This document shows positions 1 to 11,887 of a stretch of DNA of 11,887 bases, piece by piece (position 1 is the first letter of the stretch; each line of letters begins with the position of its first letter). Both the position numbers and the translations under genes were made by a program. Source of the stretch: a virus. Taxonomy: Duplodnaviria > Heunggongvirae > Uroviricota > Caudoviricetes. The stretch covers positions 1 through 11,887 of IMG/VR virus record IMGVR_UViG_2541047953_000003; one strand, 5' to 3'. The notes under the pieces were generated by a model. It was not told the DNA's origin and ran no database searches. It was given only the letters and a program-made list of their open reading frames with translations.

Positions 1-336
1 ATGGCAGAATCATTTGCAACAGGTTCCGATCATCAGGTTATAAACGAGCTCAACGGGGAAAGACTGAGAGAACCTAACGATGTTTTTAAACGTTTAGGTC
101 GAGCAATAAGATATAATTTTCAAGTGGACGATGCAAAATTTAGACGCGATAATGTAAAAGAAATAATTTCTAATTTATTCGCTAACAAAGTTGACGTTGA
201 CCATCCTGAAAATAAATACAAAGACTTTAAGGATCTCGAAGATAACGTTGAAAAAAGACTTCAAAATCGCCAGGCGAAATATCAAAATGAAATTAATCAA
301 CTATCTGCGCCAGGTGTTAATTTTGATGATATTTAA
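1..336 (+). CDS. 3' portion of a conserved hypothetical protein, probably truncated at the window edge (111 codons to the stop at 334..336)
   Basis: Open frame runs from position 1 to the stop and is convergent with mlaA, sharing a hairpin terminator. In E. coli K-12 the gene upstream of mlaA is yfdF, so this may be its C-terminus, but I do not recognise the sequence itself. Confidence 0.45.
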   Translation: MAESFATGSDHQVINELNGERLREPNDVFKRLGRAIRYNFQVDDAKFRRDNVKEIISNLFANKVDVDHPENKYKDFKDLEDNVEKRLQNRQAKYQNEINQLSAPGVNFDDI

Positions 337-480
337 AATTATTTTTCCAGTTTTTTGATTTTTCAACGCCTGAATATCGGAAATAGTCAGTGACGAACAT
401 CAGTATTTTTACATCATTACGTCCGGGTCATTGTCGGTTTATCTCCTTTTACTTGTGGTAATTGAGGGATAACAACAAAA

Positions 481-508
481 AAGGTGAGTTTTGCGACTCA
501 CCTTTTTT
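481..508. terminator. Bidirectional intrinsic terminator between the convergent upstream ORF and mlaA
   Basis: 9-bp stem AAGGTGAGT (481..489) / ACTCACCTT (496..504) with loop TTTGCG. It is flanked by an A-run upstream and a T-run downstream, so each strand sees hairpin plus U-tract. Confidence 0.7.
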
Positions 509-517
509 ATTTGTTTC

Positions 518-1273
518 TTATTCAGAATCAATATCTTTTAAATCATCCTGAATCGCTTGTGCGTTCGGATTTTCCTGCGGTTTGAGTTCGCCGCCATTAG
601 CGATGAAATCATGACGCTGGAAGTACGCTTCGCGCACCATAATATAAGGATCGGACGACTGACGCAGCAGACCATCGGAATCCAACAACTGCGCACGAGT
701 TTCTATCCCTTCAAGCGTCCATTTACCCACAGACATCGGCCAGGTCAGCCAGGAAAGAACCGGGTAAAGACCATCCGCCATATCACCACCGTCATCACGC
801 AGCGTGAAGCTACCGTAGAACGGTAACTGGACGTAAGGCCCATAACCCACGCCATAATGACCAAGCGTACTACCGAAGCGGTGAGGTTCAGTCCGTTGCA
901 GTTTCGGGTTCGCCATCCCTGCAACATCAATAAAACCGCCCATCCCCAAAATGGTGTTCAGGAAAAAGCGGGTAAAGTGGACCATCCCCTGATAAGGGTC
1001 GCCCTGCAAGAAGTAGTTAACCATCACCGCAGGTTCTTCAAGGTTGCCAGTAAAGTTGCTCAAACCGTTACGCGCCGGTTGCGGAACATAATCACGCCAG
1101 GCGACAGCGACCGGTCGAACAATATACGGGTCTAATACATTGAAGTTGAAGTTGTACATGGTGCGGTTGAACCCTTCTAACGGGTCAGAACGCCCTTGCT
1201 GATCTGTACCGGAACTCGCACACCCCACCAGAAGCGTAGTTCCCAGAGCAAGCGCCGACAGGCGAAGCTTCAT
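518..1273 (-). CDS. mlaA: MlaA (VacJ) outer-membrane lipoprotein, phospholipid asymmetry maintenance
   Basis: 251-aa ORF with N-terminal signal peptide and lipobox (LLVGC ASS). The full-length sequence matches MlaA/VacJ as I remember it, and the mlaA-yfdC-argW synteny is that of E. coli. Confidence 0.9.
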   Translation of the reverse strand: MKLRLSALALGTTLLVGCASSGTDQQGRSDPLEGFNRTMYNFNFNVLDPYIVRPVAVAWRDYVPQPARNGLSNFTGNLEEPAVMVNYFLQGDPYQGMVHFTRFFLNTILGMGGFIDVAGMANPKLQRTEPHRFGSTLGHYGVGYGPYVQLPFYGSFTLRDDGGDMADGLYPVLSWLTWPMSVGKWTLEGIETRAQLLDSDGLLRQSSDPYIMVREAYFQRHDFIANGGELKPQENPNAQAIQDDLKDIDSE

Positions 1274-1566
1274 AAATGTCTCCCTGTTTTTTTATGGCTT
1301 ATGCAGTTTGCCATCCATGACGGAACGATACCGTATCCGCCTGTTTAGGTGTGGGCGATTGTAACAGCACGTCAACTGATGTCCAGACGCCCTGATTTGC
1401 TGATTTGATCATAGCCTGGTAATCGCCGCCCTGTAGGCTACTTGATTCTATAGAAACAGAAAAAGGCAAACGCAGCCTTTTCTACATTTTCAGAGTAACT
1501 CCCGTCAGTTGCGAGCAAAAAAGCCGCTACGCTTTAGCTATACGTGCTAATTCAAGAGAAGAGACC

Positions 1567-2499
1567 ATGGACAACGACAAAATTGATCAACACAGCGACG
1601 AAATTGAAGTTGAGAGCGAAGAAAAAGAGCGCGGCAAAAAAATAGAAATAGATGAAGACCGACTCCCCTCCCGGGCGATGGCAATTCATGAGCATATCCG
1701 CCAGGATGGTGAAAAAGAGCTGGAACGCGACGCAATGGCGCTACTGTGGTCAGCCATTGCGGCGGGTCTGTCGATGGGCGCTTCGTTACTGGCAAAAGGG
1801 ATATTTCATGTCGAACTGGAAGGTGTGCCGGGCAGCTTCTTGCTGGAGAATCTCGGTTATACCTTTGGTTTTATTATCGTCATTATGGCCCGCCAGCAAT
1901 TATTTACCGAAAATACCGTGACTGCGGTACTACCCGTCATGCAAAAACCGACAATGAGCAACGTCGGCTTACTTATACGGTTATGGGGCGTCGTGCTGCT
2001 GGGTAATATTCTCGGGACAGGTATTGCGGCGTGGGCATTTGAATATATGCCTATCTTCAATGAAGAAACTCGCGATGCATTTGTCAAAATCGGCATGGAT
2101 GTGATGAAGAACACCCCCAGCGAGATGTTTGCCAACGCGATCATTTCCGGCTGGCTGATCGCCACTATGGTTTGGATGTTTCCTGCAGCGGGTGCGGCAA
2201 AGATTGTGGTGATTATATTGATGACCTGGCTTATTGCCCTGGGTGACACCACCCATATCGTGGTCGGTTCTGTTGAAATCCTCTATCTGGTGTTTAACGG
2301 TACGCTGCACTGGAGCGATTTCATCTGGCCCTTCGCACTACCTACTTTAGCGGGGAACATCTGCGGCGGCACCTTTATCTTCGCGTTAATGAGTCATGCA
2401 CAGATTCGTAACGACATGAGCAATAAGCGTAAAGCAGAAGCACGCCAAAAAGCAGAACGTGCGGAAAACATTAAGAAAAATTATAAAAACCCGGCATAA
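1567..2499 (+). CDS. yfdC: Formate/nitrite transporter (FNT) family inner-membrane protein YfdC
   Basis: 310-aa ORF with multiple hydrophobic helices after an acidic N-terminus, preceded by a purine-rich RBS (GAGAAGAGA). Size and position between mlaA and argW match yfdC. Confidence 0.85.
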   Translation: MDNDKIDQHSDEIEVESEEKERGKKIEIDEDRLPSRAMAIHEHIRQDGEKELERDAMALLWSAIAAGLSMGASLLAKGIFHVELEGVPGSFLLENLGYTFGFIIVIMARQQLFTENTVTAVLPVMQKPTMSNVGLLIRLWGVVLLGNILGTGIAAWAFEYMPIFNEETRDAFVKIGMDVMKNTPSEMFANAIISGWLIATMVWMFPAAGAAKIVVIILMTWLIALGDTTHIVVGSVEILYLVFNGTLHWSDFIWPFALPTLAGNICGGTFIFALMSHAQIRNDMSNKRKAEARQKAERAENIKKNYKNPA

Positions 2500-2557
2500 A
2501 TGGCGAGGGTTTAAGCAATCGAGCGGCAGCGTACTTACCCCGCACTCCATTAGCGGG

Positions 2558-2563
2558 TATACT
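2558..2563 (+). promoter_or_regulatory. Candidate -10 element (TATACT) of the argW tRNA promoter
   Basis: TATACT sits 11 nt upstream of the mature tRNA 5' end and is followed by a GC-rich discriminator-like stretch (GCCGC). The -35 is weak, so the call is tentative. Confidence 0.3.
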
Positions 2564-2574
2564 CATGCCGCATT

Positions 2575-2649
2575 GTCCTCTTAGTTAAATGGATATAACG
2601 AGCCCCTCCTAAGGGCTAATTGCAGGTTCGATTCCTGCAGGGGACACCA
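2575..2649 (+). tRNA. argW: tRNA-Arg, anticodon CCU
   Basis: 75-nt sequence folding as a cloverleaf: acceptor stem GTCCTCT/AGGGGAC, anticodon loop CTCCTAA (anticodon CCT), T-loop GGTTCGATTCC, encoded 3' CCA. Followed directly by an integrase gene, the classic argW island arrangement. Confidence 0.93.
2620..2635 (+). repeat. 16-bp segment of argW (TTGCAGGTTCGATTCC) that recurs exactly at 11652..11667; candidate att core, attL copy
   Basis: Exact 16/16 direct repeat found by eye. Its position inside the tRNA T-arm next to a P4-type integrase is typical of a tRNA-targeting att core. Confidence 0.6.
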
Positions 2650-2739
2650 TTTATCAGTTCGCTCCCATCCGTACCAGTCCGCAAAATCCCCTGAACATCA
2701 AGCCTTCCGTATATTCACAGTTCGTAATGGTTCGCGTCA

Positions 2740-2810
2740 GATCGTTGACAGCCACACTCCATGACGGGTAAAAAGTGGATAAAATAATTTTACCCACCGG
2801 ATTTTTACCC
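2740..2810 (+). promoter_or_regulatory. Candidate intS promoter and recombinase/RDF binding region (attL arm)
   Basis: TTGACA at 2745..2750; TAAAAT at 2780..2785; inverted repeat GGGTAAAA (2765..2772) / TTTTACCC (2789..2796), with TTTTACCC repeated again at 2803..2810 abutting the ATG. GTTCG motifs recur at 2626, 2657, 2719 and 2730. Confidence 0.35.
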
Positions 2811-3968
2811 ATGCTCACCGTTAAGCAGATTGAAGCAGCAAAGCCGAAAGAAAAACCATACCGCCTACTCGATGGTAATGGTCTGTACCTTTATGTCCCT
2901 GTATCCGGAAAAAAGGTCTGGCAGCTTCGCTACAAGATTGACGGTAAGGAGAAAATCCTGACCGTAGGAAAATATCCGCTAATGACTTTGCAGGAGGCAA
3001 GGGATAAGGCATGGACTGCGAGGAAAGACATCTCGGTTGGCATCGATCCGGTAAAGGCGAAAAAGGCTTCGTCTAACAACAATTCATTTAGTGCGATTTA
3101 CAAGGAATGGTACGAGCACAAGAAGCAAGTCTGGTCAGTAGGCTATGCAACTGAACTTGCCAAAATGTTTGATGACGACATTTTACCCATCATCGGCGGT
3201 CTTGAGATTCAGGATATTGAGCCGATGCAACTGCTGGAAGTAATCCGCAGATTTGAAGATCGCGGTGCAATGGAGCGAGCCAACAAAGCCCGCAGAAGAT
3301 GCGGCGAGGTTTTCCGTTACGCTATTGTCACCGGAAGGGCTAAATATAACCCAGCACCTGACCTTGCTGACGCCATGAAGGGATACCGCAAGAAGAACTT
3401 CCCGTTTCTTCCTGCAGACCAGATCCCGGCATTCAATAAAGCACTAGCAACATTTTCAGGAAGTATCGTATCGCTCATTGCCACCAAGGTTTTACGCTAT
3501 ACAGCCCTAAGAACGAAAGAGCTTCGTTCCATGCAATGGAAGAACGTCGATTTTGAAAACAGGATTATCACCATCGACGCCAATGTGATGAAGGGACGCA
3601 AAATTCATGTGGTTCCTATGTCAGACCAGGTGGTTGAACTTCTCACTACGCTAAGCTCAATCACTAAACCAGTGTCAGAGTTTGTTTTTGCCGGACGCAA
3701 CGATAAGAAGAAGCCAATCTGCGAGAACGCGGTGCTACTTGTGATCAAACAAATCGGCTATGAGGGTCTGGAAAGCGGTCACGGATTCAGGCATGAATTC
3801 AGTACGATTATGAACGAGCACGAATGGCCTGCTGACGCTATTGAGGTGCAACTGGCACATGCCAACGGCGGATCTGTGCGTGGGATTTACAACCATGCTC
3901 AGTATCTCGATAAGCGCAGAGAAATGATGCTGTGGTGGGCGGACTGGCTGGACGAAAAGACACAGTAA
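2811..3968 (+). CDS. intS: Tyrosine recombinase, P4-type prophage integrase (IntS-like, 385 aa)
   Basis: ORF immediately downstream of argW. The C-terminal region has the tyrosine recombinase signature (HGFRHEF ... VQLAHANGG ... RGIYNHAQY). Start chosen at MLTVKQ (2811); an in-frame ATG at 2775 would add 12 residues. Confidence 0.85.
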   Translation: MLTVKQIEAAKPKEKPYRLLDGNGLYLYVPVSGKKVWQLRYKIDGKEKILTVGKYPLMTLQEARDKAWTARKDISVGIDPVKAKKASSNNNSFSAIYKEWYEHKKQVWSVGYATELAKMFDDDILPIIGGLEIQDIEPMQLLEVIRRFEDRGAMERANKARRRCGEVFRYAIVTGRAKYNPAPDLADAMKGYRKKNFPFLPADQIPAFNKALATFSGSIVSLIATKVLRYTALRTKELRSMQWKNVDFENRIITIDANVMKGRKIHVVPMSDQVVELLTTLSSITKPVSEFVFAGRNDKKKPICENAVLLVIKQIGYEGLESGHGFRHEFSTIMNEHEWPADAIEVQLAHANGGSVRGIYNHAQYLDKRREMMLWWADWLDEKTQ

Positions 3969-3976
3969 TCAAAAGC

Positions 3977-4000
3977 GGCAGGCCACATAAAAAGCCTGCC
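3977..4000. terminator. Hairpin between convergent intS and the UmuD'-like gene
   Basis: Stem GGCAGGC (3977..3983) / GCCTGCC (3994..4000) with a 10-nt A-rich loop. The U-tract is weak on both strands. Confidence 0.4.
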
Positions 4001-4318
4001 TTATACCGCTACGCTGTCACTTCTCACATCGATGATGGTGTGTGTCACCACGCCGGCGACAGTGATATCATCCAGGGCCTCGCCTTCAATCGCTTCGCCG
4101 TCTTCGGTTATCAGCGACCGCCCTCTCAACGTGGCAAGTTCCGTCCCGCCGCCGTGCTGGATCAGAACCTGACTACCCTGCCTTGGTTTCAGGGAGATAT
4201 CCAACACAACGTAACCGCCAGACCGCTCGAAAACTAGCGTGTTTGGGCCTACATTGCAGATCGCGTTAACAGACAGACGCTGCTCAACGTAGTCAGACGC
4301 CGGAGACGGGAACGCCAT
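4001..4318 (-). CDS. UmuD'-like protein (S24 LexA/UmuD fold), genetically pre-truncated and lacking the GDSM serine motif
   Basis: N-terminus MAFPSPASDYVEQR matches the UmuD segment GFPSPAADYVEQR that immediately follows the RecA-mediated cleavage site. The C-terminal half aligns loosely with the UmuD beta-core, but no GDSM-type serine motif is present (RSGGY instead). Start codon overlaps the stop of the upstream small gene (TGATG). An in-frame ATG at 4351 is the alternative start. Confidence 0.7.
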   Translation of the reverse strand: MAFPSPASDYVEQRLSVNAICNVGPNTLVFERSGGYVVLDISLKPRQGSQVLIQHGGGTELATLRGRSLITEDGEAIEGEALDDITVAGVVTHTIIDVRSDSVAV

Positions 4319-4557
4319 CAGATGACCCTCCCCATGTTGGCCATCATCCACAGCCTGTTTTCGCTATGCTCTGCCGTTTTGTCGACAAAGTACGTCTGCT
4401 CTCTTGATATCCAGTTGTTAGCCTCCTCTTCTGAAAAATGGATACCCCTCCGCTGTAGTTCGGAGATGAAAGAATCAGTGTAAAGGTATTGATAACCTTT
4501 AGGATTTATAGAAATGGAGGCTCTGAAAGCCTCCGCGATGGCGTTACGTCTGATCAT
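4318..4557 (-). CDS. Small hypothetical protein (79 aa from ATG; 83 aa if the TTG at 4569 is used), first gene of the SOS-box operon
   Basis: ORF directly downstream of the LexA box and translationally coupled to the UmuD'-like gene. I recognise no family. The arrangement recalls the small impC gene preceding impA in plasmid impCAB operons; this is an analogy by position only. Confidence 0.5.
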   Translation of the reverse strand: MIRRNAIAEAFRASISINPKGYQYLYTDSFISELQRRGIHFSEEEANNWISREQTYFVDKTAEHSENRLWMMANMGRVI

Positions 4558-4575
4558 GTCTCTTACCAAACAAAA

Positions 4576-4591
4576 CTGTATTTATATACAG
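4576..4591 (-). promoter_or_regulatory. LexA (SOS) box CTGTATTTATATACAG overlapping a candidate promoter
   Basis: Matches the E. coli consensus CTGT-N8-ACAG with an AT-rich centre. It lies 19 bp upstream of the small-gene ATG. On the transcribed strand a -35 TTGACT (complement of 4612..4617) sits about 17-18 bp upstream of a -10 that overlaps the box. Confidence 0.7.
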
Positions 4592-4622
4592 TATTGTTTG
4601 CGTTAATCAACAGTCAATCATT

Positions 4623-6722
4623 TTATTGAATAAAAGTGTAAGGAGAAGCGATGGTATATTGTGCATTAGCCCCTATGGGAGTATCGAAAATCCACACCTC
4701 ACTCAAACCATCTTTTGTAATTGACGCGTTAGGTCCCCCATGGCTGCATCCATAAAGATATAACTTTGCTTTACCAGTTAAGTCGGATCCTTGCCCAGCA
4801 GTAAAGCAGGCGCCACCGATAAAGTCTGCCCTTGAACTATCATGCGAGTAACACCCAAAGTTAGCTGTAACCGTGCCATCATGAACATCGTGAACTACAC
4901 GGCCAAACGTTCCGTAGTATTCACCGTTCAAACGTATCCCTACAGTTCCGTCATGAGCGGTAGAGCCGTTATTATTTGGTAAATTATCAAAACCACTCCA
5001 ACGGCCAGTACAACCAATTTCGATAAACCACGGCTTTATCCCAAGACCATTCTGATCGGCATGATAGTTAAATGCGTCCTGCATCCCGTATTGAGCAGTG
5101 CAATTCTGCATAATACAGTTTACACCTAAAGAGTTAAAGGCATTCCTTGTCACAGATAAATCAAATATACAATTTTTTGCATATAAGTATCCTTTTTTAC
5201 CCGCCGTTTGAACCTCAGCCTGAAACCCCCTAAAGCTGTCCTTAAAGTGAATATTTTCAATATAAACTTTGCTATTATCCTGAATTCTTCCATTAGTCAA
5301 TTGAAGAACAAGCCGTGAATTAGAATCAGGAGCTCGCCCGTCAAAAAGATGAATATACAGCGTATTCCCTGTTTTATAGGATGAGCCAGGTGTTGAAACG
5401 CAGTCGGCAAGGCTGGCTACGGGAGTTAGAACCTGAGCATGTCCATAACTATCAAGATTGGCATAGTCAACAACGTTTAGAACAAGATTACCTGTGTACT
5501 GGTATACGCCAGCGCTTCCCTGTGCCGCCCACGTTGCAGCCGGTTCAACAGTGCTCAGAATTGGTGTTCCATCGTATCCGATGAAATCGAGCTCGCGGTC
5601 AACTACGCTAACATTCCATGTAAAATCACGGGTATATTCCATCCCGCCTTTTATCATGATTGTCCTTGCTGCCGGGGTTTTCTCAATGGCATATTTTATA
5701 CGCTGGAATGGTTTAGCCTGCGTGCCGTCTCCAGTCGTATCACTACCGTTAGTGCAGTCCACATAATATGTTGTCCCGCTGGATGCCTTCTTCACAGCCA
5801 CATCATAATCAGTCCAATATCTAAGCGTGCCATCAGAACGAAGTGCGCAGTAAATTGGAATCTGCTCTTCTATTCTTCTCAGCTCACCTGGAAACCATGG
5901 TATTGATGATGGGCATCCGGCAATTCCAAAAGCACTTTTATTTGCATTGCCAATTAATTCTATAAGAGTCCCTGATTTAATATGAGCAATAAGTAGCGAG
6001 CCGTCAAATGGATATCTGTCACGCGCTTCATATGTTCCGTCTGATTTAACAACAATACATATTGTGCTTGATGTTGTTGTGACATTCTGATTTTGACCAA
6101 TAACACTAACGCCATTAAAAGAATAAAGACCGCCAGAAAAGCTTATAGTTGATGATCCTGCAACTGGTTTCCATTGAGGAGATATAATCACGCCTCCTAA
6201 CGATCTGTATAATCTATCAAGAGCTGTATAAACGGTGCTGTCCCTATAGCCAACCAAGGTGGCTCCATTTGACTCTCCAAGCGCTGAGAAATCTACGCTT
6301 ATTGAGCTTATTGCATCGTATACATTGGTGTCTTTAAATCCTACTAATTTCGCGCCATCTGGCTGTGAAAGATCATATCTTAGCTGATCTGGTGAATATC
6401 TTAAGACATTGGAGAAGTAAAATTGCTGTGCTCCATATGCATCATACACAGCCATGCTATGGCTTTGAACTGTCACGAATTTGGCAATCTGTCCGTTATA
6501 TACAGGATAACCAGCGGCGTTAATGATGATTGGCTGCGAAACAGGAACGTGAGAACCATCCTCATTCTCCACATAAACCTGAATCTGGTTTTCAGGATTT
6601 ACCGGGTCAGTGTCAATTTTACCGATATAAATTTTACCATTGGCAACCGCTTTAAAAGAACGCGCCATAGTGAAGAGTTGCGAAGGCATGCTTACTACAA
6701 CATTGGCTGTAATGTCTGTCAT
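4623..6722 (-). CDS. Phage tailspike protein (P22 gp9-type head-binding domain plus divergent receptor-binding region)
   Basis: 699-aa ORF. The first ~110 residues ([11 protein letters not shown]...[23 protein letters not shown]...) match the conserved N-terminal domain of P22-like tailspikes as remembered. The rest differs from P22 gp9 and contains a beta-helix-type start motif ([15 protein letters not shown]...TIMIKGG). RBS GGAG upstream. Confidence 0.85.
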
Positions 6723-6779
6723 TTAATTTGCTCCAGATAGAAGGAAACGCCGCAGCGTGGCTACGGCAATGCGTCATTG

Positions 6780-6794
6780 AGACCACAGTGGTCT
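6780..6794. promoter_or_regulatory. Candidate Mnt operator: perfect 7-1-7 palindrome AGACCACAGTGGTCT
   Basis: Perfect palindrome between divergent mnt and tailspike, immediately upstream of a candidate mnt promoter (-35 TTGTGG 6797..6802, -10 TATGAT 6820..6825). Resembles the P22 mnt operator half-site as I recall it. A second small palindrome CAATGCGTCATTG lies at 6766..6778. Confidence 0.5.
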
Positions 6795-6857
6795 TATTGT
6801 GGATATAACCAGTAGATCATATGATGCCGATCCACTTACAAAAGTGAGGCATCAAGA

Positions 6858-7109
6858 ATGGGAAGAGATGACCCGCAATTTAATCTGCGGCTACCTTACG
6901 AATTAAAGGAAAAACTAAAACAGCGAGCCAAATCCAATGGCCGCTCTCTTAATTCAGAATTAGTTCAGATAGTGACTGATGCTGTATCAAAGCCATCCAA
7001 AATTTCAGGCTATCGAGACGATGCGGAACGCATCGCTGATGAGCAGTCTGAACTTGTTAAGAAGATGGTGTTTGATACGCTGAAGGATTTGTACAAAAAA
7101 CCCACCTGA
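6858..7109 (+). CDS. mnt: Mnt-type repressor (Arc/MetJ ribbon-helix-helix family)
   Basis: 83-aa ORF with strong similarity throughout to P22 Mnt as remembered (RDDP.FN.R.P...EKLK.RA..NGRS.NSEL.QIV.DA.SKPS...GYR.DAER.ADEQSELVKKMVFDTLKDLYKK). RBS GTGAGG 8 nt upstream. Confidence 0.85.
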   Translation: MGRDDPQFNLRLPYELKEKLKQRAKSNGRSLNSELVQIVTDAVSKPSKISGYRDDAERIADEQSELVKKMVFDTLKDLYKKPT

Positions 7110-7122
7110 TGGTGGGTTCCAT
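7101..7122. terminator. Intrinsic terminator between convergent mnt and the lipoprotein gene
   Basis: Stem CCCACC (7101..7106) / GGTGGG (7111..7116) with loop TGAT containing the mnt stop codon. On the - strand the hairpin is followed by TTTTTTG, making it strong for the lipoprotein gene; the + strand U-tract is weaker. Confidence 0.7.
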
Positions 7123-7125
7123 TTA

Positions 7126-7545
7126 TTAGTCTTGCTTTGTGGACGGTATAAGGGATGCATTTGCCTCTTTAGGCTTCAAGGTATACATCCCACCATTAAA
7201 TGGATCTACAGCAAGCCAACCAATTAACCCACCAAACACAAGGTTTCCACCAATATACCAACCATTAGCATTGGCTTTTATTGGCATGGTAACTGGTTCG
7301 TACCCATCCTTCTCCATAGTGATCTGGTAGCTCTTTTTGCCAAAATAACTACCATCTGACTTGGCAAGAGTTACTCCTTGCGGGGTCTTACCTTGCGCAA
7401 CAATCACGCCTGATTCGTCTTTTACCTTAAAGCTCGCACCGGAAGGATTGCTGTTCACTTGCACAAGCTGTGTTTCGTCACCAACAATAGTTGCGCACCC
7501 AGATAACATGATAACGCCAGCAACGACGCCGATAATCCTCTTCAT
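7126..7545 (-). CDS. Putative prophage lipoprotein (139 aa) with a PEGA-like beta region and a glycine-rich hydrophobic C-terminus
   Basis: Signal peptide with lipobox (VIMLSGC). The middle region has a PEGA-like pattern (VQVNSNPSGASFKV...GKTPQGVTL...GYEPV), and the C-terminus has a Gly-zipper-like hydrophobic segment (YIGGNLVFGGLIGWLAV). Has its own terminator. The domain call is from pattern only. Confidence 0.6.
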   Translation of the reverse strand: MKRIIGVVAGVIMLSGCATIVGDETQLVQVNSNPSGASFKVKDESGVIVAQGKTPQGVTLAKSDGSYFGKKSYQITMEKDGYEPVTMPIKANANGWYIGGNLVFGGLIGWLAVDPFNGGMYTLKPKEANASLIPSTKQD

Positions 7546-7616
7546 ATTACTTTCCGTTTTGTTAGAATCAGAAAGATCTTAATAATAAAAAGTATTTTCG
7601 TGAAGATATTGTCGAT

Positions 7617-7631
7617 TGAGTTAATAACTCA
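7617..7631. promoter_or_regulatory. Perfect 7-1-7 palindrome TGAGTTAATAACTCA in the divergent lipoprotein intergenic region
   Basis: Perfect palindrome about 50 bp upstream of the + strand lipoprotein start, inside an AT-rich divergent promoter region (7546..7679). Operator-like; the binding protein is unknown. Confidence 0.35.
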
Positions 7632-7679
7632 TTTACACCCAACAGTGCCATGATGGCAAAGATAAGGAGAGTTAATCAT

Positions 7680-8165
7680 ATGAAAAAATCACTGTTAATT
7701 ATCCCGCTTCTGCTGGCAGGGTGTGCAAAGATTAGCGACTATCAGGCAAGTTGCGAACAACGCTATCCAAAGCTTAGCGATATGGCTAATTGCCTTGATG
7801 CTAGCGTGAAGAGCGACTCACGCATGGCATCAGCACCAACACCTAAGTTATATGTCCTTGCTGCGAAGATGCTCGGGCAAGGTGTCGATGATGGCAAGAT
7901 AAGTGACGCGCAGGCAAGACTTGAGCTTCAGAATCTTTATGTTCAATTACAAAGCCAAGAACAAGCCCAACAAATAGCGCAAAGCCAAGCATTCCAGCAG
8001 GCTTTATTGAATTATCAGGCTGTAAACACTATGCAAGCGATCGAGCAAAAAGCGAGACAGCCTGTTATAACTCAACCATATCCAACACGAGTTGACACTT
8101 ACACAAACTGCAATTCAGGGTTTGGAAATACAGTCACATGCAACAGTAGCAGTAACATCAGATAA
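7680..8165 (+). CDS. Putative prophage lipoprotein (161 aa) with a Gln-rich, probably coiled-coil region
   Basis: Start taken at MKKSLLIIPLLLAGC (lipobox LAGC) with RBS AAGGAGA 9 nt upstream. The in-frame ATG at 7650 is less likely. The mature part contains a Q-rich heptad-like stretch (LELQNLYVQLQSQEQAQQIAQSQAFQQALLNYQ). I recognise no family. Confidence 0.6.
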   Translation: MKKSLLIIPLLLAGCAKISDYQASCEQRYPKLSDMANCLDASVKSDSRMASAPTPKLYVLAAKMLGQGVDDGKISDAQARLELQNLYVQLQSQEQAQQIAQSQAFQQALLNYQAVNTMQAIEQKARQPVITQPYPTRVDTYTNCNSGFGNTVTCNSSSNIR

Positions 8166-8255
8166 CAATCAGCAAAGGTATCGCCTATGCAGAGGGATAC
8201 GATAAACCTCGCGTTCTACATATTTGGTTTTTGCACGTTCATGGTGTTTGAAAAG

Positions 8256-10649
8256 CTATTCTGACAACGCATCAGACTTAGCCCCCTGCATCATAGCGTT
8301 AATTGCCTTTTGTGCCTGCTGCATGGCTTTCTCAAACGCTGTTGAACCGCGTGGGGTGTTTGCCATTCGGAGCATTGCATTTCTGAATGGCTCGCTCTCA
8401 TAGGCGCGAGTAAGAAGTCCGTAGCTTACTGCTGCGCCAGTTGTCGCCGGGTTCATTGCCGTCCCATACCCAATTATGAACGGGATAGTTTGCTGCCCTG
8501 TGGGTGTTGTTACTGCCGCTTTTGCAGCCTGCTGCGTGGATTGCAGGTAGTTTTTTAATCCTTTCAGATAAGCAGCGTCCTGCCCCTTAAATGTGATGCC
8601 AGTCTGTTTTTGCAGGATGTTAAGCTGCCGAAGGAACTGGTCAGGGGATCCGCCAGATTTCTCCATCGCCTTTCCAATGATGCCATTGCGCATTTGCGCC
8701 CTGCCAACACGACCAACTGAGTTATACAGCGTCTTAATTTCCGATTTGTTCTTGCTGAATAGCATGTTGTTGACAACTTCCGGTGTCAGGTCGCCTTTCA
8801 TGAGAACATTCTTCAGCCTGGTATTCTTTAGTTTCGCCGCTTCGTCAGCGTAGACGGCATTGGCCTGCTGATATTTACGGAGAGTATCGTTGCCAAGATT
8901 CTGACCAATGGCACCATTGATATCGTCTGTCATCGCCTTGTAAACGCGCTGAATGGCAGCATCGGAACGGTTTGGCAACACTGGTCGTTCCCCCTTCACG
9001 TCCATTCTGAACTGGCTGCGCAGATCGCTTAATTGCTTCAAATCCAGATTTACCGGACCATCAGGACCAGCATTGCGAACAAGCTCATCACGATAGGACT
9101 GAAGTTTTGAAATAGTCTCGTTATCGGCGACCTTACCAAGCTTCTGCAGATTAGATATTTCTGTATCAATCTGCTGAATTGCTCGCGCAGGATGAATGTT
9201 TACTCCAGCCATAGCATTCTGAACCTGCTCCAGTCGATTACCGGCGGCACGACGAATTCCTGATGTTTTCGCTTTAAGGCTGTCAATAACAACCGCTGGA
9301 TCATACTCACCGAATTTATCGGCAAATCTCTGCACCAACTGGCTTCTCGCTTCCTGTTGCGTTGCTCTCATTCCGCTTGTGCCAGCCAGGGGGATATTTT
9401 CTGCTGTAGTCTGCGCCATTTTCCCGACGCGGGAAGTAGGCTGTAACAGGTCTGTGGTGTGCAGAGGAACTCCTTCACGCTCTGCAAACCTGATAGCCTG
9501 TTGAGCTTCTGGTGCTATCGAACCACGAACACCACGATAAGCAGCACCTAATCCACGTCCGGCAGCGTTAATAGCACCGCCAGCCAGCACACCAACGCCT
9601 AAATCGGTGGCGAGTGCTTCCGCATCATCTTTCGCACTGTTTGCAGCAAGTGATCCAACTGCGTTTTCTGCTAGAAGACGAGTTGCACCCTGAGCAATTC
9701 GACCAGCAAGTGTTGGTGCCTGTGTTGCCGCTCTCTCAACGCCAGCAGGAGTGAGGTAAGGCAATGCTTCAGCAAATACCCTTCCCTCTGTCGTTTGTGG
9801 AGTCAGCGCGCCTTGCTGAAGGCCAAAGTCCTGCTCTAATCCCTGCGTTGTTACTCGTGGTGCTGGTTGATATGTACCATCGCCAATGCCGAGTTTACCT
9901 CCAGCCCAAGCCGCCGCGCTTGTTACAGCATCAGTGAGTTCAGCAGGTATGTTCGCTACGTTGATTCCTGCCTGTAGTAAGCCGCGCCCGGTTTCAGCAA
10001 GTCCATTACCAAGGTCAGACATTATTCCGCCTTGCTGCTGAACAGGTTTCGGTGCGACAGAACTTACGGGTTGAGGTGGCTGCTGACTGGCTGCCTGCTG
10101 CTCAATCTGAGCAAATGGATTATTTGGGTCTGACTGCACGCCTGATGCCGATACTTGTTCGGATGACTGTGCTTCCAGTTGTGCAAACGGGTTGTTAGGG
10201 TCTTGCTGAGGATGTACCTTTGCAGAGGTGGCGCGCTGTTCGACTGTTGAGTCTGTCACCGGGTCACCCGCCCATTGAGCAAAGCGATCATCAACGTAAC
10301 CGCGGCCTTCAGGTCCTGGCGTATATTCACCACGCTTTGCCTTCATAACGTTGCCGGGACCGTCGTGATAAGCCTGAAGAGCGTCACGCCAGTTACCAAA
10401 CTGCTGGTACATCTTTGCCAGATAGCGCGCGCCAGCGTCAGCCTGATATTCGGGGTTTTGCATTTGCTCATCGGTATAACCCATATCACGCCATGTCCCA
10501 GGCATGACCTGAGTCAATCCTACAGCCCCGGCGGAGCTTACTGCGGCAGGGTTGTAAGAAGACTCCTTGGCACCCAGTGCAGTCATCAACCCTTCTGGCA
10601 CACCGTAACGTGCGCCAGCCTGCTCTAACAAATCACGGTAATTAGCCAT
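8256..10649 (-). CDS. Phage ejection (internal virion) protein with an N-terminal lytic transglycosylase (SLT) domain
   Basis: 797-aa ORF. The N-terminus carries family-1 lytic transglycosylase motifs (ALGAKESSYNP with catalytic Glu; AVGLTQVMPGTW; AGARYL). It is followed by a tandem peptide repeat (DPNNPFAQLE / DPNNPFAQIE) and a long Ala/Gly/Gln-rich body. Its position upstream of the immI-like region and tailspike corresponds to the last ejection gene of P22-like phages. Confidence 0.75.
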   Translation of the reverse strand: MANYRDLLEQAGARYGVPEGLMTALGAKESSYNPAAVSSAGAVGLTQVMPGTWRDMGYTDEQMQNPEYQADAGARYLAKMYQQFGNWRDALQAYHDGPGNVMKAKRGEYTPGPEGRGYVDDRFAQWAGDPVTDSTVEQRATSAKVHPQQDPNNPFAQLEAQSSEQVSASGVQSDPNNPFAQIEQQAASQQPPQPVSSVAPKPVQQQGGIMSDLGNGLAETGRGLLQAGINVANIPAELTDAVTSAAAWAGGKLGIGDGTYQPAPRVTTQGLEQDFGLQQGALTPQTTEGRVFAEALPYLTPAGVERAATQAPTLAGRIAQGATRLLAENAVGSLAANSAKDDAEALATDLGVGVLAGGAINAAGRGLGAAYRGVRGSIAPEAQQAIRFAEREGVPLHTTDLLQPTSRVGKMAQTTAENIPLAGTSGMRATQQEARSQLVQRFADKFGEYDPAVVIDSLKAKTSGIRRAAGNRLEQVQNAMAGVNIHPARAIQQIDTEISNLQKLGKVADNETISKLQSYRDELVRNAGPDGPVNLDLKQLSDLRSQFRMDVKGERPVLPNRSDAAIQRVYKAMTDDINGAIGQNLGNDTLRKYQQANAVYADEAAKLKNTRLKNVLMKGDLTPEVVNNMLFSKNKSEIKTLYNSVGRVGRAQMRNGIIGKAMEKSGGSPDQFLRQLNILQKQTGITFKGQDAAYLKGLKNYLQSTQQAAKAAVTTPTGQQTIPFIIGYGTAMNPATTGAAVSYGLLTRAYESEPFRNAMLRMANTPRGSTAFEKAMQQAQKAINAMMQGAKSDALSE

Positions 10650-10811
10650 TTACTGCCCCAAAGATGGAAGATATCCGTAGCGATTAATGAAGTCGATTGA
10701 CAGCTCGGGGTGCTGCTTCAGGTAATGGTCATGTATGAAGACGGTGAGATGTGGTCTGCAATGTGGAATGGCAATCGCTGGGATGATGGCACCGAATATC
10801 CGGATCCGCAC
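10650..10811 (-). pseudogene. Possible 3' remnant of the upstream ejection-protein gene (no start codon); marks the deletion junction
   Basis: The - strand frame ending at TAA (complement of 10650..10652), directly abutting the ATG of the 797-aa gene (TAAATG), is open for only 53 codons and contains no Met. It overlaps a + strand small ORF (10725..10868), so one of the two is not real. Confidence 0.3.
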
Positions 10812-10864
10812 TCAGTTACGCACTGGCGTGAAATGCCAGCAGCGCCGAAACAGGAGGTGAAGTC

Positions 10865-11077
10865 GTGAGCAAGCACATCATCAAATATGACTATCGAGAG
10901 GGAGTTAAACTTGCAAAGCATGAAATAGAAACGTGGTGCGGACATGCGCCACAATTTTCAGACTGGTTGTTTCAGGATGCTCAGCACGCGCTGTTGAGCA
11001 TTGAGCAGGGAACGCTGCTTGTTCCTTGCAAGAATTGTCTGGCAGCAATCATCAAAACGGCGCAGGAGGTGAAGTGA
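10865..11077 (+). CDS. Small hypothetical protein (70 aa, GTG start), possible Cys/His metal-binding motif
   Basis: Strong SD (CAGGAGGTGAAGT) 8 nt upstream of the GTG. Contains CGH ... CKNC. Its stop overlaps the start of the next gene (TGATG). Confidence 0.5.
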   Translation: MSKHIIKYDYREGVKLAKHEIETWCGHAPQFSDWLFQDAQHALLSIEQGTLLVPCKNCLAAIIKTAQEVK

Positions 11078-11361
11078 TGGACTCCTTCGCGAAATATACG
11101 ATCATTGACTGGATAGCATTCCTTCAGGTTTTGCTCATCTGGTTTTATATGGCTTACAGGAGTGGACAGTGGATTGTCAGTGTAGCCTGTAGCAAGGGAT
11201 GGCGTTGGTGGAACAGAAAGAATAAAAAAGCACTGGCATTGGATTCGTTTTACGAAGCATTCAATCTTAACAGCCTTCAGCCTGGTTCTGTCATTGTAGT
11301 CACCACTCAAAGCGGCATGACGATACAAATTCACAAGCCAAAGGAGGAAGGTCGTGGCTAA
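11077..11361 (+). CDS. Small hypothetical membrane protein (94 aa)
   Basis: Start at MDSFAKY, preceded by the same 13-nt CAGGAGGTGAAGT element. One N-terminal hydrophobic helix (IIDWIAFLQVLLIWFYMAY). The longer ORF from 11026 is less likely. Confidence 0.5.
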   Translation: MDSFAKYTIIDWIAFLQVLLIWFYMAYRSGQWIVSVACSKGWRWWNRKNKKALALDSFYEAFNLNSLQPGSVIVVTTQSGMTIQIHKPKEEGRG

Positions 11362-11423
11362 CCTGCAACTTGCCGTCAAAGGTGAATAACAATCCTCGCA
11401 TTCACTGGGATTTCTTTTATCTG

Positions 11424-11450
11424 AACTCGCTACGGCGAGTTTTGTTTTAT
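11424..11450 (+). terminator. Candidate hairpin terminator after the membrane-protein gene
   Basis: Stem AACTCGC / GCGAGTT with loop TACG, followed by TTTTGTTTTAT. Confidence 0.4.
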
Positions 11451-11461
11451 GGAGATGATAA

Positions 11462-11629
11462 ATGCACTTCCGAGTCACAGGTGAATGGAATGGAGAGCCA
11501 TTCGACAGGGTTATCGAAGCCGAGAACATCAGCGACTGCTATGACCACTGGATGCTGTGGGCGCAGATAGCACATGCAGACGTAACCAATATTCGAATTG
11601 AAGAACTGAAAGAACACCAAGCCGCCTGA
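11462..11629 (+). CDS. Small hypothetical protein (55 aa), prophage right-arm gene
   Basis: ATG preceded by GGAG with 7-nt spacing; ORF MHFRVTGEWNGEPFDRVIEAENISDCYDHWMLWAQIAHADVTNIRIEELKEHQAA, followed directly by a strong terminator. It is below the ORF-track size cutoff. It may correspond to the small ypdJ-type ORF next to torI in K-12, but I do not recognise the sequence. Confidence 0.45.
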   Translation: MHFRVTGEWNGEPFDRVIEAENISDCYDHWMLWAQIAHADVTNIRIEELKEHQAA

Positions 11630-11641
11630 TGGCGGTTTTTT
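11621..11641 (+). terminator. Rho-independent terminator
   Basis: Stem CCGCC (11622..11626) / GGCGG (11631..11635) with loop TGAT containing the stop codon, followed by TTTTTTATT. Confidence 0.75.
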
Positions 11642-11651
11642 ATTGCCTGAT

Positions 11652-11667
11652 TTGCAGGTTCGATTCC
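11652..11667 (+). repeat. Second exact copy of the 16-bp argW segment TTGCAGGTTCGATTCC; candidate att core (attR or internal junction)
   Basis: 16/16 identity with 2620..2635. It lies between a terminator and the RBS of the excisionase gene. The sequence downstream of the repeat is not tRNA-like. Confidence 0.55.
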
Positions 11668-11686
11668 CTATTCGGAGATAGCACTC

Positions 11687-11887
11687 ATGCAACACGAACT
11701 ACAGCCTGATTCACTGGTTGATTTGAAATTCATCATGGCCGATACTGGCTTCGGTAAAACCTTCATCTACGACCGGATTAAGTCCGGCGACCTGCCAAAA
11801 GCCAAAGTTATCCACGGGCGAGCAAGATGGTTATATCGTGACCATTGTGAATTCAAAAATAAGCTCTTAAGCCGCGCCAATGGGTAA
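11687..11887 (+). CDS. torI: Excisionase / recombination directionality factor (Xis/AlpA winged-helix family), TorI-like
   Basis: 66-aa ORF with the AlpA/Xis-type pattern (FIMADTGFGKTFIYDRIKSGDLPKAKVIHGRARWLYRD); RBS GGAG 9 nt upstream. Size and position at the far end of an argW prophage from intS match KplE1 TorI as I recall it. Confidence 0.65.
   Translation: MQHELQPDSLVDLKFIMADTGFGKTFIYDRIKSGDLPKAKVIHGRARWLYRDHCEFKNKLLSRANG

Follow-up and report, generated by a model that had tools for sequence, protein, structure and literature searches.

The prophage KplE1 (CPS-53) and the phages HK620, Sf6, CUS-3 and Kapi1 share a recombination module, studied by Panis, Ansaldi and co-workers, that is built around the integrase IntS and the excisionase, or recombination directionality factor (RDF), TorI (HkaC). 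The module targets the tRNA gene argW, has a 16-nt core and carries torI at the attR end of the prophage; this position, at the end opposite intS, is a published hallmark of the module (PMC2951348). The published core of KplE1/CPS-53 is CTGCAGGGGACACCAT (PMC2951348), which was also verified as the duplication at both junctions of phage Kapi1 (PMC8787464). Here we analyse 11,887 nucleotides of viral DNA (Caudoviricetes; positions 1 to 11,887 of IMG/VR record IMGVR_UViG_2541047953_000003), called the window below, which carries a module of this type at argW, with a TorI identical to that of K-12. A 16-nt segment of argW recurs shortly before torI and had been proposed from the sequence as a possible attR core. 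We are confident that it is internal phage DNA and not an attachment core, and we find that its inner part is a sharply bounded box, conserved before the Shine-Dalgarno sequence (SD) of the excisionase gene (xis) across Enterobacterales. What the box does is, at this stage, a guess made from sequence comparison.

TorI sites are 8-nt units on the pentamers GTTCG, GATCG or GTCCG; there are five of them in attL, and TorI represses the intS promoter (P-intS) through two of these, I4 and I5 (PMC2951348). IntS, whose arm-type sites carry TAAA, also represses P-intS, a promoter mapped in the P' arm that belongs to intS itself; the promoter of torI (P-torI) was stated to be uncharacterised (PMC2951348). 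The window has the same attL layout, with five TorI sites, TAAA arm sites and P-intS. The spacing of its TorI sites (12 nt, then 2 nt and 2 nt) and their pentamers agree with those published (PMC2951348), and the block that they form (2655-2745) adjoins the -35 element of P-intS (TTGACA, 2745-2750). In the phage copies of the module, the stretch from torI to attR, including the 16-mer, is 97-99% identical to that of the window. The recombination system and its att sites are already known, and the repeat itself is already annotated in GenBank. In the literature searched on KplE1, the box upstream of torI is not among the att sites described, and the 16-mer string was not found in the text of the literature searched.

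The repeat and the attachment core

The 16-mer TTGCAGGTTCGATTCC occurs exactly twice in the window, both times on the plus strand, at 2620-2635 within argW (copy 1) and at 11652-11667, 20 nt before torI (copy 2), which are the coordinates given in the original prediction. There is no third match in the window when up to two mismatches are allowed. The expectation by chance is 0.01 matches, and two matches were obtained in none of 200 dinucleotide-preserving shuffles, which bears out the earlier claim that the repeat goes beyond chance in this window; a rough hand estimate, not a tool output, is that an exact 16-mer repeat of any kind in 11.9 kb has a chance probability of a few percent. Stronger evidence than the repeat statistics is the conservation of the inner box across lineages, described below, and it is mainly for this reason that we do not regard copy 2 as a chance match. 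Copy 2 is flanked by an intrinsic terminator on its 5' side and by the SD and ATG of torI on its 3' side. The sequence downstream of it begins CTATTCGG and is not a displaced tRNA 3' end, as had been noticed before: the tRNA homology stops after TTCC, and the SD and torI follow.

E. coli GF4 is 100% identical to the window over the window's final 588 bases, and the match to the K-12 lineage begins at about 11637. Both GF4 and a K-12 derivative have 73 nt after torI, then CTGCAGGGGACACCAT and then the dsdC flank (core at L001 13662-13677 and at 12326-12341 of the L002 read-out). The attR core is therefore located 73 nt past the torI stop and outside the window, at the equivalent of positions 11961-11976 (74 bases past the window end). 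The original prediction had allowed that the real attR might lie just past the end of the window, which is correct; it had also said that a further core copy with a tRNA 3' fragment downstream of torI would make copy 2 an internal site, and both are present there, the fragment being CTGCAGGGGACACCAT.

Empty sites give the same answer. Complete E. coli genomes were searched with a synthetic junction (yfdC-argW...CACCAT|CCTTGTG...dsdC), a match being defined as at least 80% of the length in a single contiguous place. On this definition, argW is joined to dsdC exactly at CTGCAGGGGACACCAT|CCTTGTG in 912 of 5,426 genomes, with 100% identity to the query in ATCC 8739, so that the comparison with related strains, which had been suggested as a check, points to CTGCAGGGGACACCAT and not to the 16-mer. 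The scar that would be left by recombination between the two 16-mers (argW 5' part, 16-mer, CTATTCGG, torI) was found in none of the 5,426; such an event would also truncate argW. In vitro, excision is supported by a 135-bp attR that was bounded on its left by a primer within the final 20 nt of torI (PMC3509656), so this substrate does not contain copy 2.

In the HK620 and Sf6 genomes as deposited, copy 2, torI and the core form one uninterrupted stretch inside the phage sequence. Copy 2 is therefore no junction artefact of tandem integration, and the suggestion of tandem or sequential integrations at one core finds no support. When the possible orders of nested or tandem integration were worked through by hand, each placed intS, not torI, beside a T-arm copy unless an extra deletion was assumed, and they were rejected as unparsimonious. 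On its outer side copy 2 borders torI, which in HK620 and Sf6 is phage DNA, and not the host; the real tRNA fragment (CTGCAGGGGACACCAT with the dsdC flank) is downstream of torI. The 16-mer is present at both prophage ends and in attB, and in attP 293 bp separate it from the crossover core; directly to the left of that core stands GTAGATGTC, not the T-loop. The RDF gene had been thought to lie, unusually, outside the repeat-bounded segment. It is inside the element, and since its position opposite intS is the published hallmark noted above, that position is no sign of an RDF lying outside. We therefore conclude, with high confidence, that copy 2 is not an attachment-site core and that the prophage recombines at CTGCAGGGGACACCAT (attL 2635-2650; attR 73 nt past the torI stop). 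With equal confidence we regard copy 2 as internal phage DNA that forms the left edge of the known KplE1/CPS-53-HK620-Sf6 module, in the order box, torI, P arm, core, P' arm, intS. The 16-mer is real as a sequence feature, and its interpretation as an attR core is wrong.

That interpretation, in which copy 2 would be attR or an alternative core and excision between the 16-mers would leave torI behind, draws on the fact that an exact 16-bp direct repeat brackets most of the prophage and on a GenBank record; against the true core downstream of torI, the 912 empty sites, the missing scar, the in vitro competence of an attR without the 16-mer and the presence of 16-mer and torI inside the HK620 and Sf6 genomes, we find it scarcely credible. 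The record in question is that of CUS-3 (CP000711), where the 16-mer is labelled 'attL core' at 1-16 and 'attR core' at 40192-40207, and where the sequence ends (L003 1554-1569 and L007 1-16). The right end of CUS-3 in host genomes (L360 1390-1590) continues into torI and dsdC: in a genome with a 100%-identical right end these follow directly after the labelled 'core', so both the true attR and the xis gene of the phage are missing from the record. Its labels express the same reading as the original prediction. Elsewhere in GenBank the repeat is annotated differently and inconsistently. The HK620 record (AF335538) labels the copy 2 stretch as promoter of 'phage integration' and gives it a binding site for 'cII protein', TTGCCTGATTTGC, and in Sf6 (AF547987) it is 'pI', within a 'boundary sequence' named bsq2. 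The main value of the present result is thus corrective: a repeat of tRNA sequence at both prophage ends mimics an att core and has already misled a deposited genome, which was cut at the 16-mer, and repeat-based boundary calling at argW may repeat the error and place the excisionase outside the element.

Elements that integrate into tRNA genes carry att identity blocks derived from the tRNA, as reported by Reiter in 1989 and Williams in 2002. Copy 2 resembles such blocks in being identical to part of the target tRNA gene, where it is contiguous with the real identity block. It differs from them in lying 293 bp from the core, with torI in between, in lacking the tRNA 3' end, in not being at a phage/host junction and in having no use in crossover.

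A conserved box before the excisionase gene

The box, GTTCGATTCCC, consists of the inner 10-11 nt of copy 2, GTTCGATTCC(C), and is sharply bounded. It reproduces the T-loop of argW (G53-C62) and carries TTCGAT, a string that attB and most attP sites also have on the left side of the core. Diverged modules were sampled from phage records and from one genome per species, and viral contigs were scanned with the motif alone, with no requirement for the gene. The box precedes xis in E. coli, Citrobacter, Serratia, two Pantoea, Edwardsiella, Erwinia phage Midgardsormr38 and several Salmonella g341c-type lineages; in the g341c-type phages Xis is just 47% identical to TorI and the box is still present.

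When 18 leaders are aligned, conservation is confined to the columns of GTTCGATT(C/T)C(C) and of the SD, and the sequence further upstream is unrelated between lineages. Pairwise comparison of 13 diverged Enterobacterales lineages gives a mean identity of 0.98 for the 10-mer box, against 0.40 for the 11 nt upstream of it and 0.46 for the third codon positions of xis. The spacer from the box to the SD is 4-7 nt long, and 13 nt in Serratia. This difference in identity, taken with the variable spacer, shows that the box is selected in its own right and does not hitch-hike on its surroundings; it is under strong purifying selection. The T-stem-like bases 5' of it vary (CAGG, CAAG, TCAG, CCTG, CCGG). 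On this alignment, the 16/16 match of E. coli to argW is made up of a T-arm-like motif of 13 nt that is common to the nearer relatives (10 of them kept in all sampled lineages) and 3 nt (TTG) found in the E. coli lineage only. An 11-nt box conserved across genera at the ribosome-binding region of torI appears to be new; the remaining interest of the locus, in this box and in the mis-bounded phage record, is modest.

The 39-kb Sf6 genome has one exact copy of the box. Its regulatory regions contain no extra copies of the kind known for Apl and Cox, and clusters of TorI pentamers occur solely in its P' arm. No box was found upstream of the distant TorI homologues L035-L038. A protein-guided scan of viral contigs returned E. 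coli-identical copies only and added no diversity, and a scan of viral contigs for the second common form of the T-loop, placed before an SD (GTTCGAATCC-N3-8-GGAGAT), gave 120 matches, all of them tRNA genes or unrelated sequence and none before xis. Fragments resembling the argW T-arm in viral contigs L140, L163, L208 and L230 were rejected as ordinary tRNA-Arg(CCT) genes of other bacteria.

Several details of individual lineages are worth recording. In Midgardsormr38 the box is tandemly duplicated just upstream of xis (CAGGTTCGATTCCCGT / CAGGTTCGATTCCCAC, 16-nt period, L008 about 2486-2517), and the second box may be a functional site or a slippage duplication. In Dryocola sp. (L019 about 2460-2500) a terminator and TTATTGCCTG run directly into the xis SD, and it looks as if a box-bearing segment of ~24 nt had been precisely deleted there or inserted in the other lineages. 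Most non-E. coli modules have a second T-loop-like block, TTCGAT, to the left of the core in attP or attR (L017, L018, L020, L008 and L022; for example TTCGATGTATGCAGG), keeping the spacing to TGCAGG that it has in the tRNA (TTCGATTCCTGCAGG). In these modules xis is thus flanked by two T-loop-like blocks, of which the one near the core is probably a left core-type half-site of the integrase. Two short contigs from metagenome-assembled genomes (MAGs), labelled 'Actinomycetes bacterium' (L016) and 'Parachlamydiaceae bacterium' (L033), carry torI modules of the usual enterobacterial kind, whose TorI homologues are 85% and 92% identical to TorI; the leader of L033 matches that of Citrobacter, and contamination or mis-binning is likely.

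Possible functions of the box

Synthesis of TorI triggers excision, yet the regulation of P-torI is called uncharacterised in the KplE1 literature. Among the alternatives raised in the original prediction, a core-like site for the recombinase or RDF in the torI promoter region is the one that we hold most likely. The explanation that we favour combines an internal copy 2 with a conserved box and, taken as a whole, we regard it as evenly poised between right and wrong. In it, proteins encoded by the module itself would bind the box as a DNA site. The likeliest binder would be TorI, acting at its own gene as it already does at P-intS through I4 and I5, with IntS, through its core-binding domain, as the alternative; either protein at the box would damp or time the expression of torI from early-left transcripts that read through. 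That the box is bound by TorI (or IntS) to control torI is a part of this explanation which we put forward tentatively.

The box travels with the module through unrelated phage backgrounds, so it would most simply be read by the module's own proteins. The octamer AGGTTCGA (11656-11663) contains GTTCG and fits the definition of an 8-nt TorI unit, and attB shares TTCGAT-N3-TGCAGG, in exact or near-exact form, with the attP of most lineages. There are precedents among dual-role RDFs. P2 Cox is an RDF that binds both att and promoter DNA. TorI itself does so at P-intS, and a passage of PMC7498355 describes 186 Apl as binding direct repeats at att and between pR and pL; the box resembles these sites in having a recognition pentamer beside a gene of the recombination module. 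In Synechococcus L036 and L038, the first ~130 nt past AlpA/TorI-like open reading frames (ORFs) contain CGTTCG direct repeats with a 10-bp period (CGTTCGTAGGCGTTCG, CGTTCGTAGCCGTTCG). These repeats beside distant cyanobacterial homologues suggest that recognition of GTTCG is an old trait of the family, kept far outside Enterobacterales.

A number of observations weigh against the box being an operator of this kind. In the box, GTTCG is always followed by A, where C or T follows the pentamer in the five TorI sites of K-12 and in the sites read in the P' arms of other lineages, and since the flanks of the I sites are variable, the conserved ATTCC(C) is unexplained by the TorI-site consensus. 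Unlike the sites of the dual-role RDFs, the box occurs singly in most lineages, and it does not share a helical phase with the look-alike closest to it: the next pentamer-like string (ATTCG, GTTCG or GTCCG) is 12 nt away (ATTCG at +12 in the window), and neither this spacing nor the 16-nt period of Midgardsormr38 fits the 10/20-bp phasing of the attL sites. The box is absent from Dryocola, whose TorI homologue is 85% identical, and from Tatumella, Rouxiella, Klebsiella RCIP0114 and Erwinia EhrS49, where unrelated sequence or a terminator runs straight into the xis SD; its absence from close relatives indicates that it is dispensable for recombination and for the module. All box-bearing modules with a readable core have an argW-type core, and none with another T-loop variant was found, so a scan for covariation with the target tRNA is without power. 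Binding of TorI or IntS at the box, and an effect of the box on expression, are putative.

A more specific version of the proposal is that the box is an operator mimicking the target site. The proteins of the module would have evolved to read T-loop DNA at attB (GTTCG by the RDF, TTCGAT-N3-TGCAGG by the integrase), and the phage would keep a perfect mimic of it before the RDF gene. We consider this somewhat unlikely. If true, one and the same recognition would serve to find the chromosomal site and to set how much excisionase is made, or when, and the box would be a conserved and previously undescribed control point of excision across Enterobacterales, possibly made from exapted tRNA-derived DNA.

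Other explanations invoke IntS or the mRNA leader. The box could be a site for the core-binding/catalytic domains of IntS, mimicking the left half-site of attB without a crossover region, at which the low level of IntS in a lysogen would hold torI down. It does fit the tRNA side of attB (TTCGATTCC) better than it fits any TorI site; attB has TTCGAT-N3-TGCAGG in common with the attP of Serratia, Citrobacter, one Pantoea and Midgardsormr38, and several other lineages have near matches; the Serratia and Pantoea boxes extend the tRNA match by 2 nt (TTCCTG); and IntS is already a repressor of P-intS (PMC2951348). However, 11600-11887 has no arm-type (GGGTAAAA) TAAA motif, compared with four at 2766-2810, and in the literature searched the core-type contacts of IntS are not mapped to the T-loop. 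Core-type half-sites are also usually bound weakly by an integrase that lacks arm contacts, as for lambda Int, and we judge the proposal unlikely. If the box acted instead in the mRNA leader, as an anti-SD (UUCC with GGAG) or as a T-arm-like hairpin modulating the translation or processing of torI, the near-constant distance to the SD would be accounted for, and RNAalifold does pair UUCC with GGAG in all sequences. The helix in its consensus is only 4 bp, at about -1 kcal/mol and with no compensatory changes. A T-arm-like hairpin (ACAGG...CCTGT) forms in Edwardsiella and P. stewartii, and the Citrobacter leader has z = -1.9, but single-sequence folds are inconsistent between lineages and not significant (z from -1.9 to +0.25), and the E. 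coli copy is unable to form the T-stem. This explanation is, in our view, quite unlikely.

The GenBank annotations of HK620 (as 'phage integration' promoter and 'cII protein' site) and Sf6 ('pI') imply that the box is part of a CII/C1-activated pI-type promoter, with TTGCCTGATTTGC as activator site, making int mRNA for lysogenisation. The position, at the start of xis upstream of int, resembles that of the lambda promoter, and a start near the SD would yield int without Xis, as in lambda. The spacing here is TTGC-N5-TTGC against N6 in the annotated Sf6 P_RE site, and with 14 N5/N6 strings in Sf6 the string is not distinctive. The upstream TTGC half-site is not conserved in the other box-bearing lineages, whereas the box is; a scan of 11300-11887 for sigma-70-like promoters found no -10/-35 pair; and the promoter mapped for intS itself is in the P' arm (PMC2951348). 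We consider such a promoter improbable. Very improbable, finally, is a functionless relic of tRNA-derived DNA, left by a longer ancestral attP homology or an old nested or tandem integration and hitch-hiking or serving as a mosaic 'boundary sequence'. The box is within 2 nt of the end of the lambda-like homology and inside bsq2 of Sf6; the tRNA match is extended on different sides in different lineages (TTG- in E. coli, -TG in Serratia and Pantoea), which fits decay from a fuller T-arm; and 16-mer and true core are contiguous in argW. A neutral relic should nevertheless decay like its surroundings, and the box is 98% identical where its flanks are 40% and the third positions of xis 46%, with a spacer inside the module that varies. 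The same three observations (side-varying tRNA match, contiguity with the core in argW, lambda homology ending at most 2 nt away) make it plausible that the box originated from a tRNA and was later exapted, an origin compatible with the explanation that we favour.

Other features of the window

The features of the window are collected in the table. The prophage body between 2650 and 11650 is a deletion remnant of roughly 9.3 kb from a P22-like phage, and differs in this from the body of KplE1 in K-12. It contains intS, a tailspike and an injection protein, followed by a short early-left fragment and by torI. At least 80% of the body in one place was seen in no complete E. coli genome.

Features of the window, in order of position
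Feature	Position	Strand	Remarks
argW, tRNA-Arg(CCT)	2575..2649	+	ARAGORN (sole tRNA found); annotated tRNA-Arg in K-12-type locus L002; 3' end supplied by prophage (attL)
16-mer copy 1	2620..2635	+	5' half of argW T-stem, T-loop and 2 nt of 3' half of T-stem
attL core CTGCAGGGGACACCAT	2635..2650	+	overlaps copy 1 by one base; published core (PMC2951348); Kapi1 junctions (PMC8787464)
Five published-type TorI sites	I1 2655-2662, I2 2675-2682, I3 2718-2725, I4 2728-2735, I5 2738-2745	+	8-nt units around GTTCG/GTCCG/GATCG
IntS arm-type (P') repeats with TAAA	2766..2810	+	GGGTAAAA, GGATAAAA and two copies of TTTTACCC; four in all
intS, integrase	2811..3968	+	Pfam scan: Arm-DNA-bind_3, Phage_int_M, Phage_integrase
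Tailspike with Head_binding domain	4623-6722	-	prophage body
SLT-domain injection protein	8256-10649	-	prophage body
Intrinsic terminator	11619..11645	+	stem 11619-11638, T-run to about 11645; ends phage early-left genes, ~6 nt before copy 2
16-mer copy 2	11652..11667	+	internal phage DNA, left edge of torI-attP-intS module; identical in HK620, Sf6, CUS-3, phiv205-1
T-loop-like box GTTCGATTCCC	11658..11668	+	part of copy 2 under purifying selection; contains TorI-type pentamer GTTCG; from 18-leader alignment
torI Shine-Dalgarno GGAG	11674..11677	+	5 nt past 11-nt box, 6 nt past TTCC
torI, excisionase/RDF, 66 aa	11687..11887	+	100% identical to K-12 TorI; ATG 11687; stop codon at window end

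Terminators equivalent to the one before copy 2 are found in Citrobacter L018, in L016 and in Dryocola L019. A second intrinsic terminator (11423-11442) lies upstream of a 55-aa ORF (11462-11629), which the phiv205-1 record annotates as similar to a lambda hypothetical protein. The 3' end of this ORF, the terminator that follows it and TTATTGCCTG are common to lambda-like phages up to the mosaic junction beside the 16-mer. At the other side of torI, a candidate 46-residue ORF (gene 17 / hkaB; L004 2782-2922, L005 2282-2422) overlaps the torI stop and crosses the P arm and the attP core, and is split by integration.

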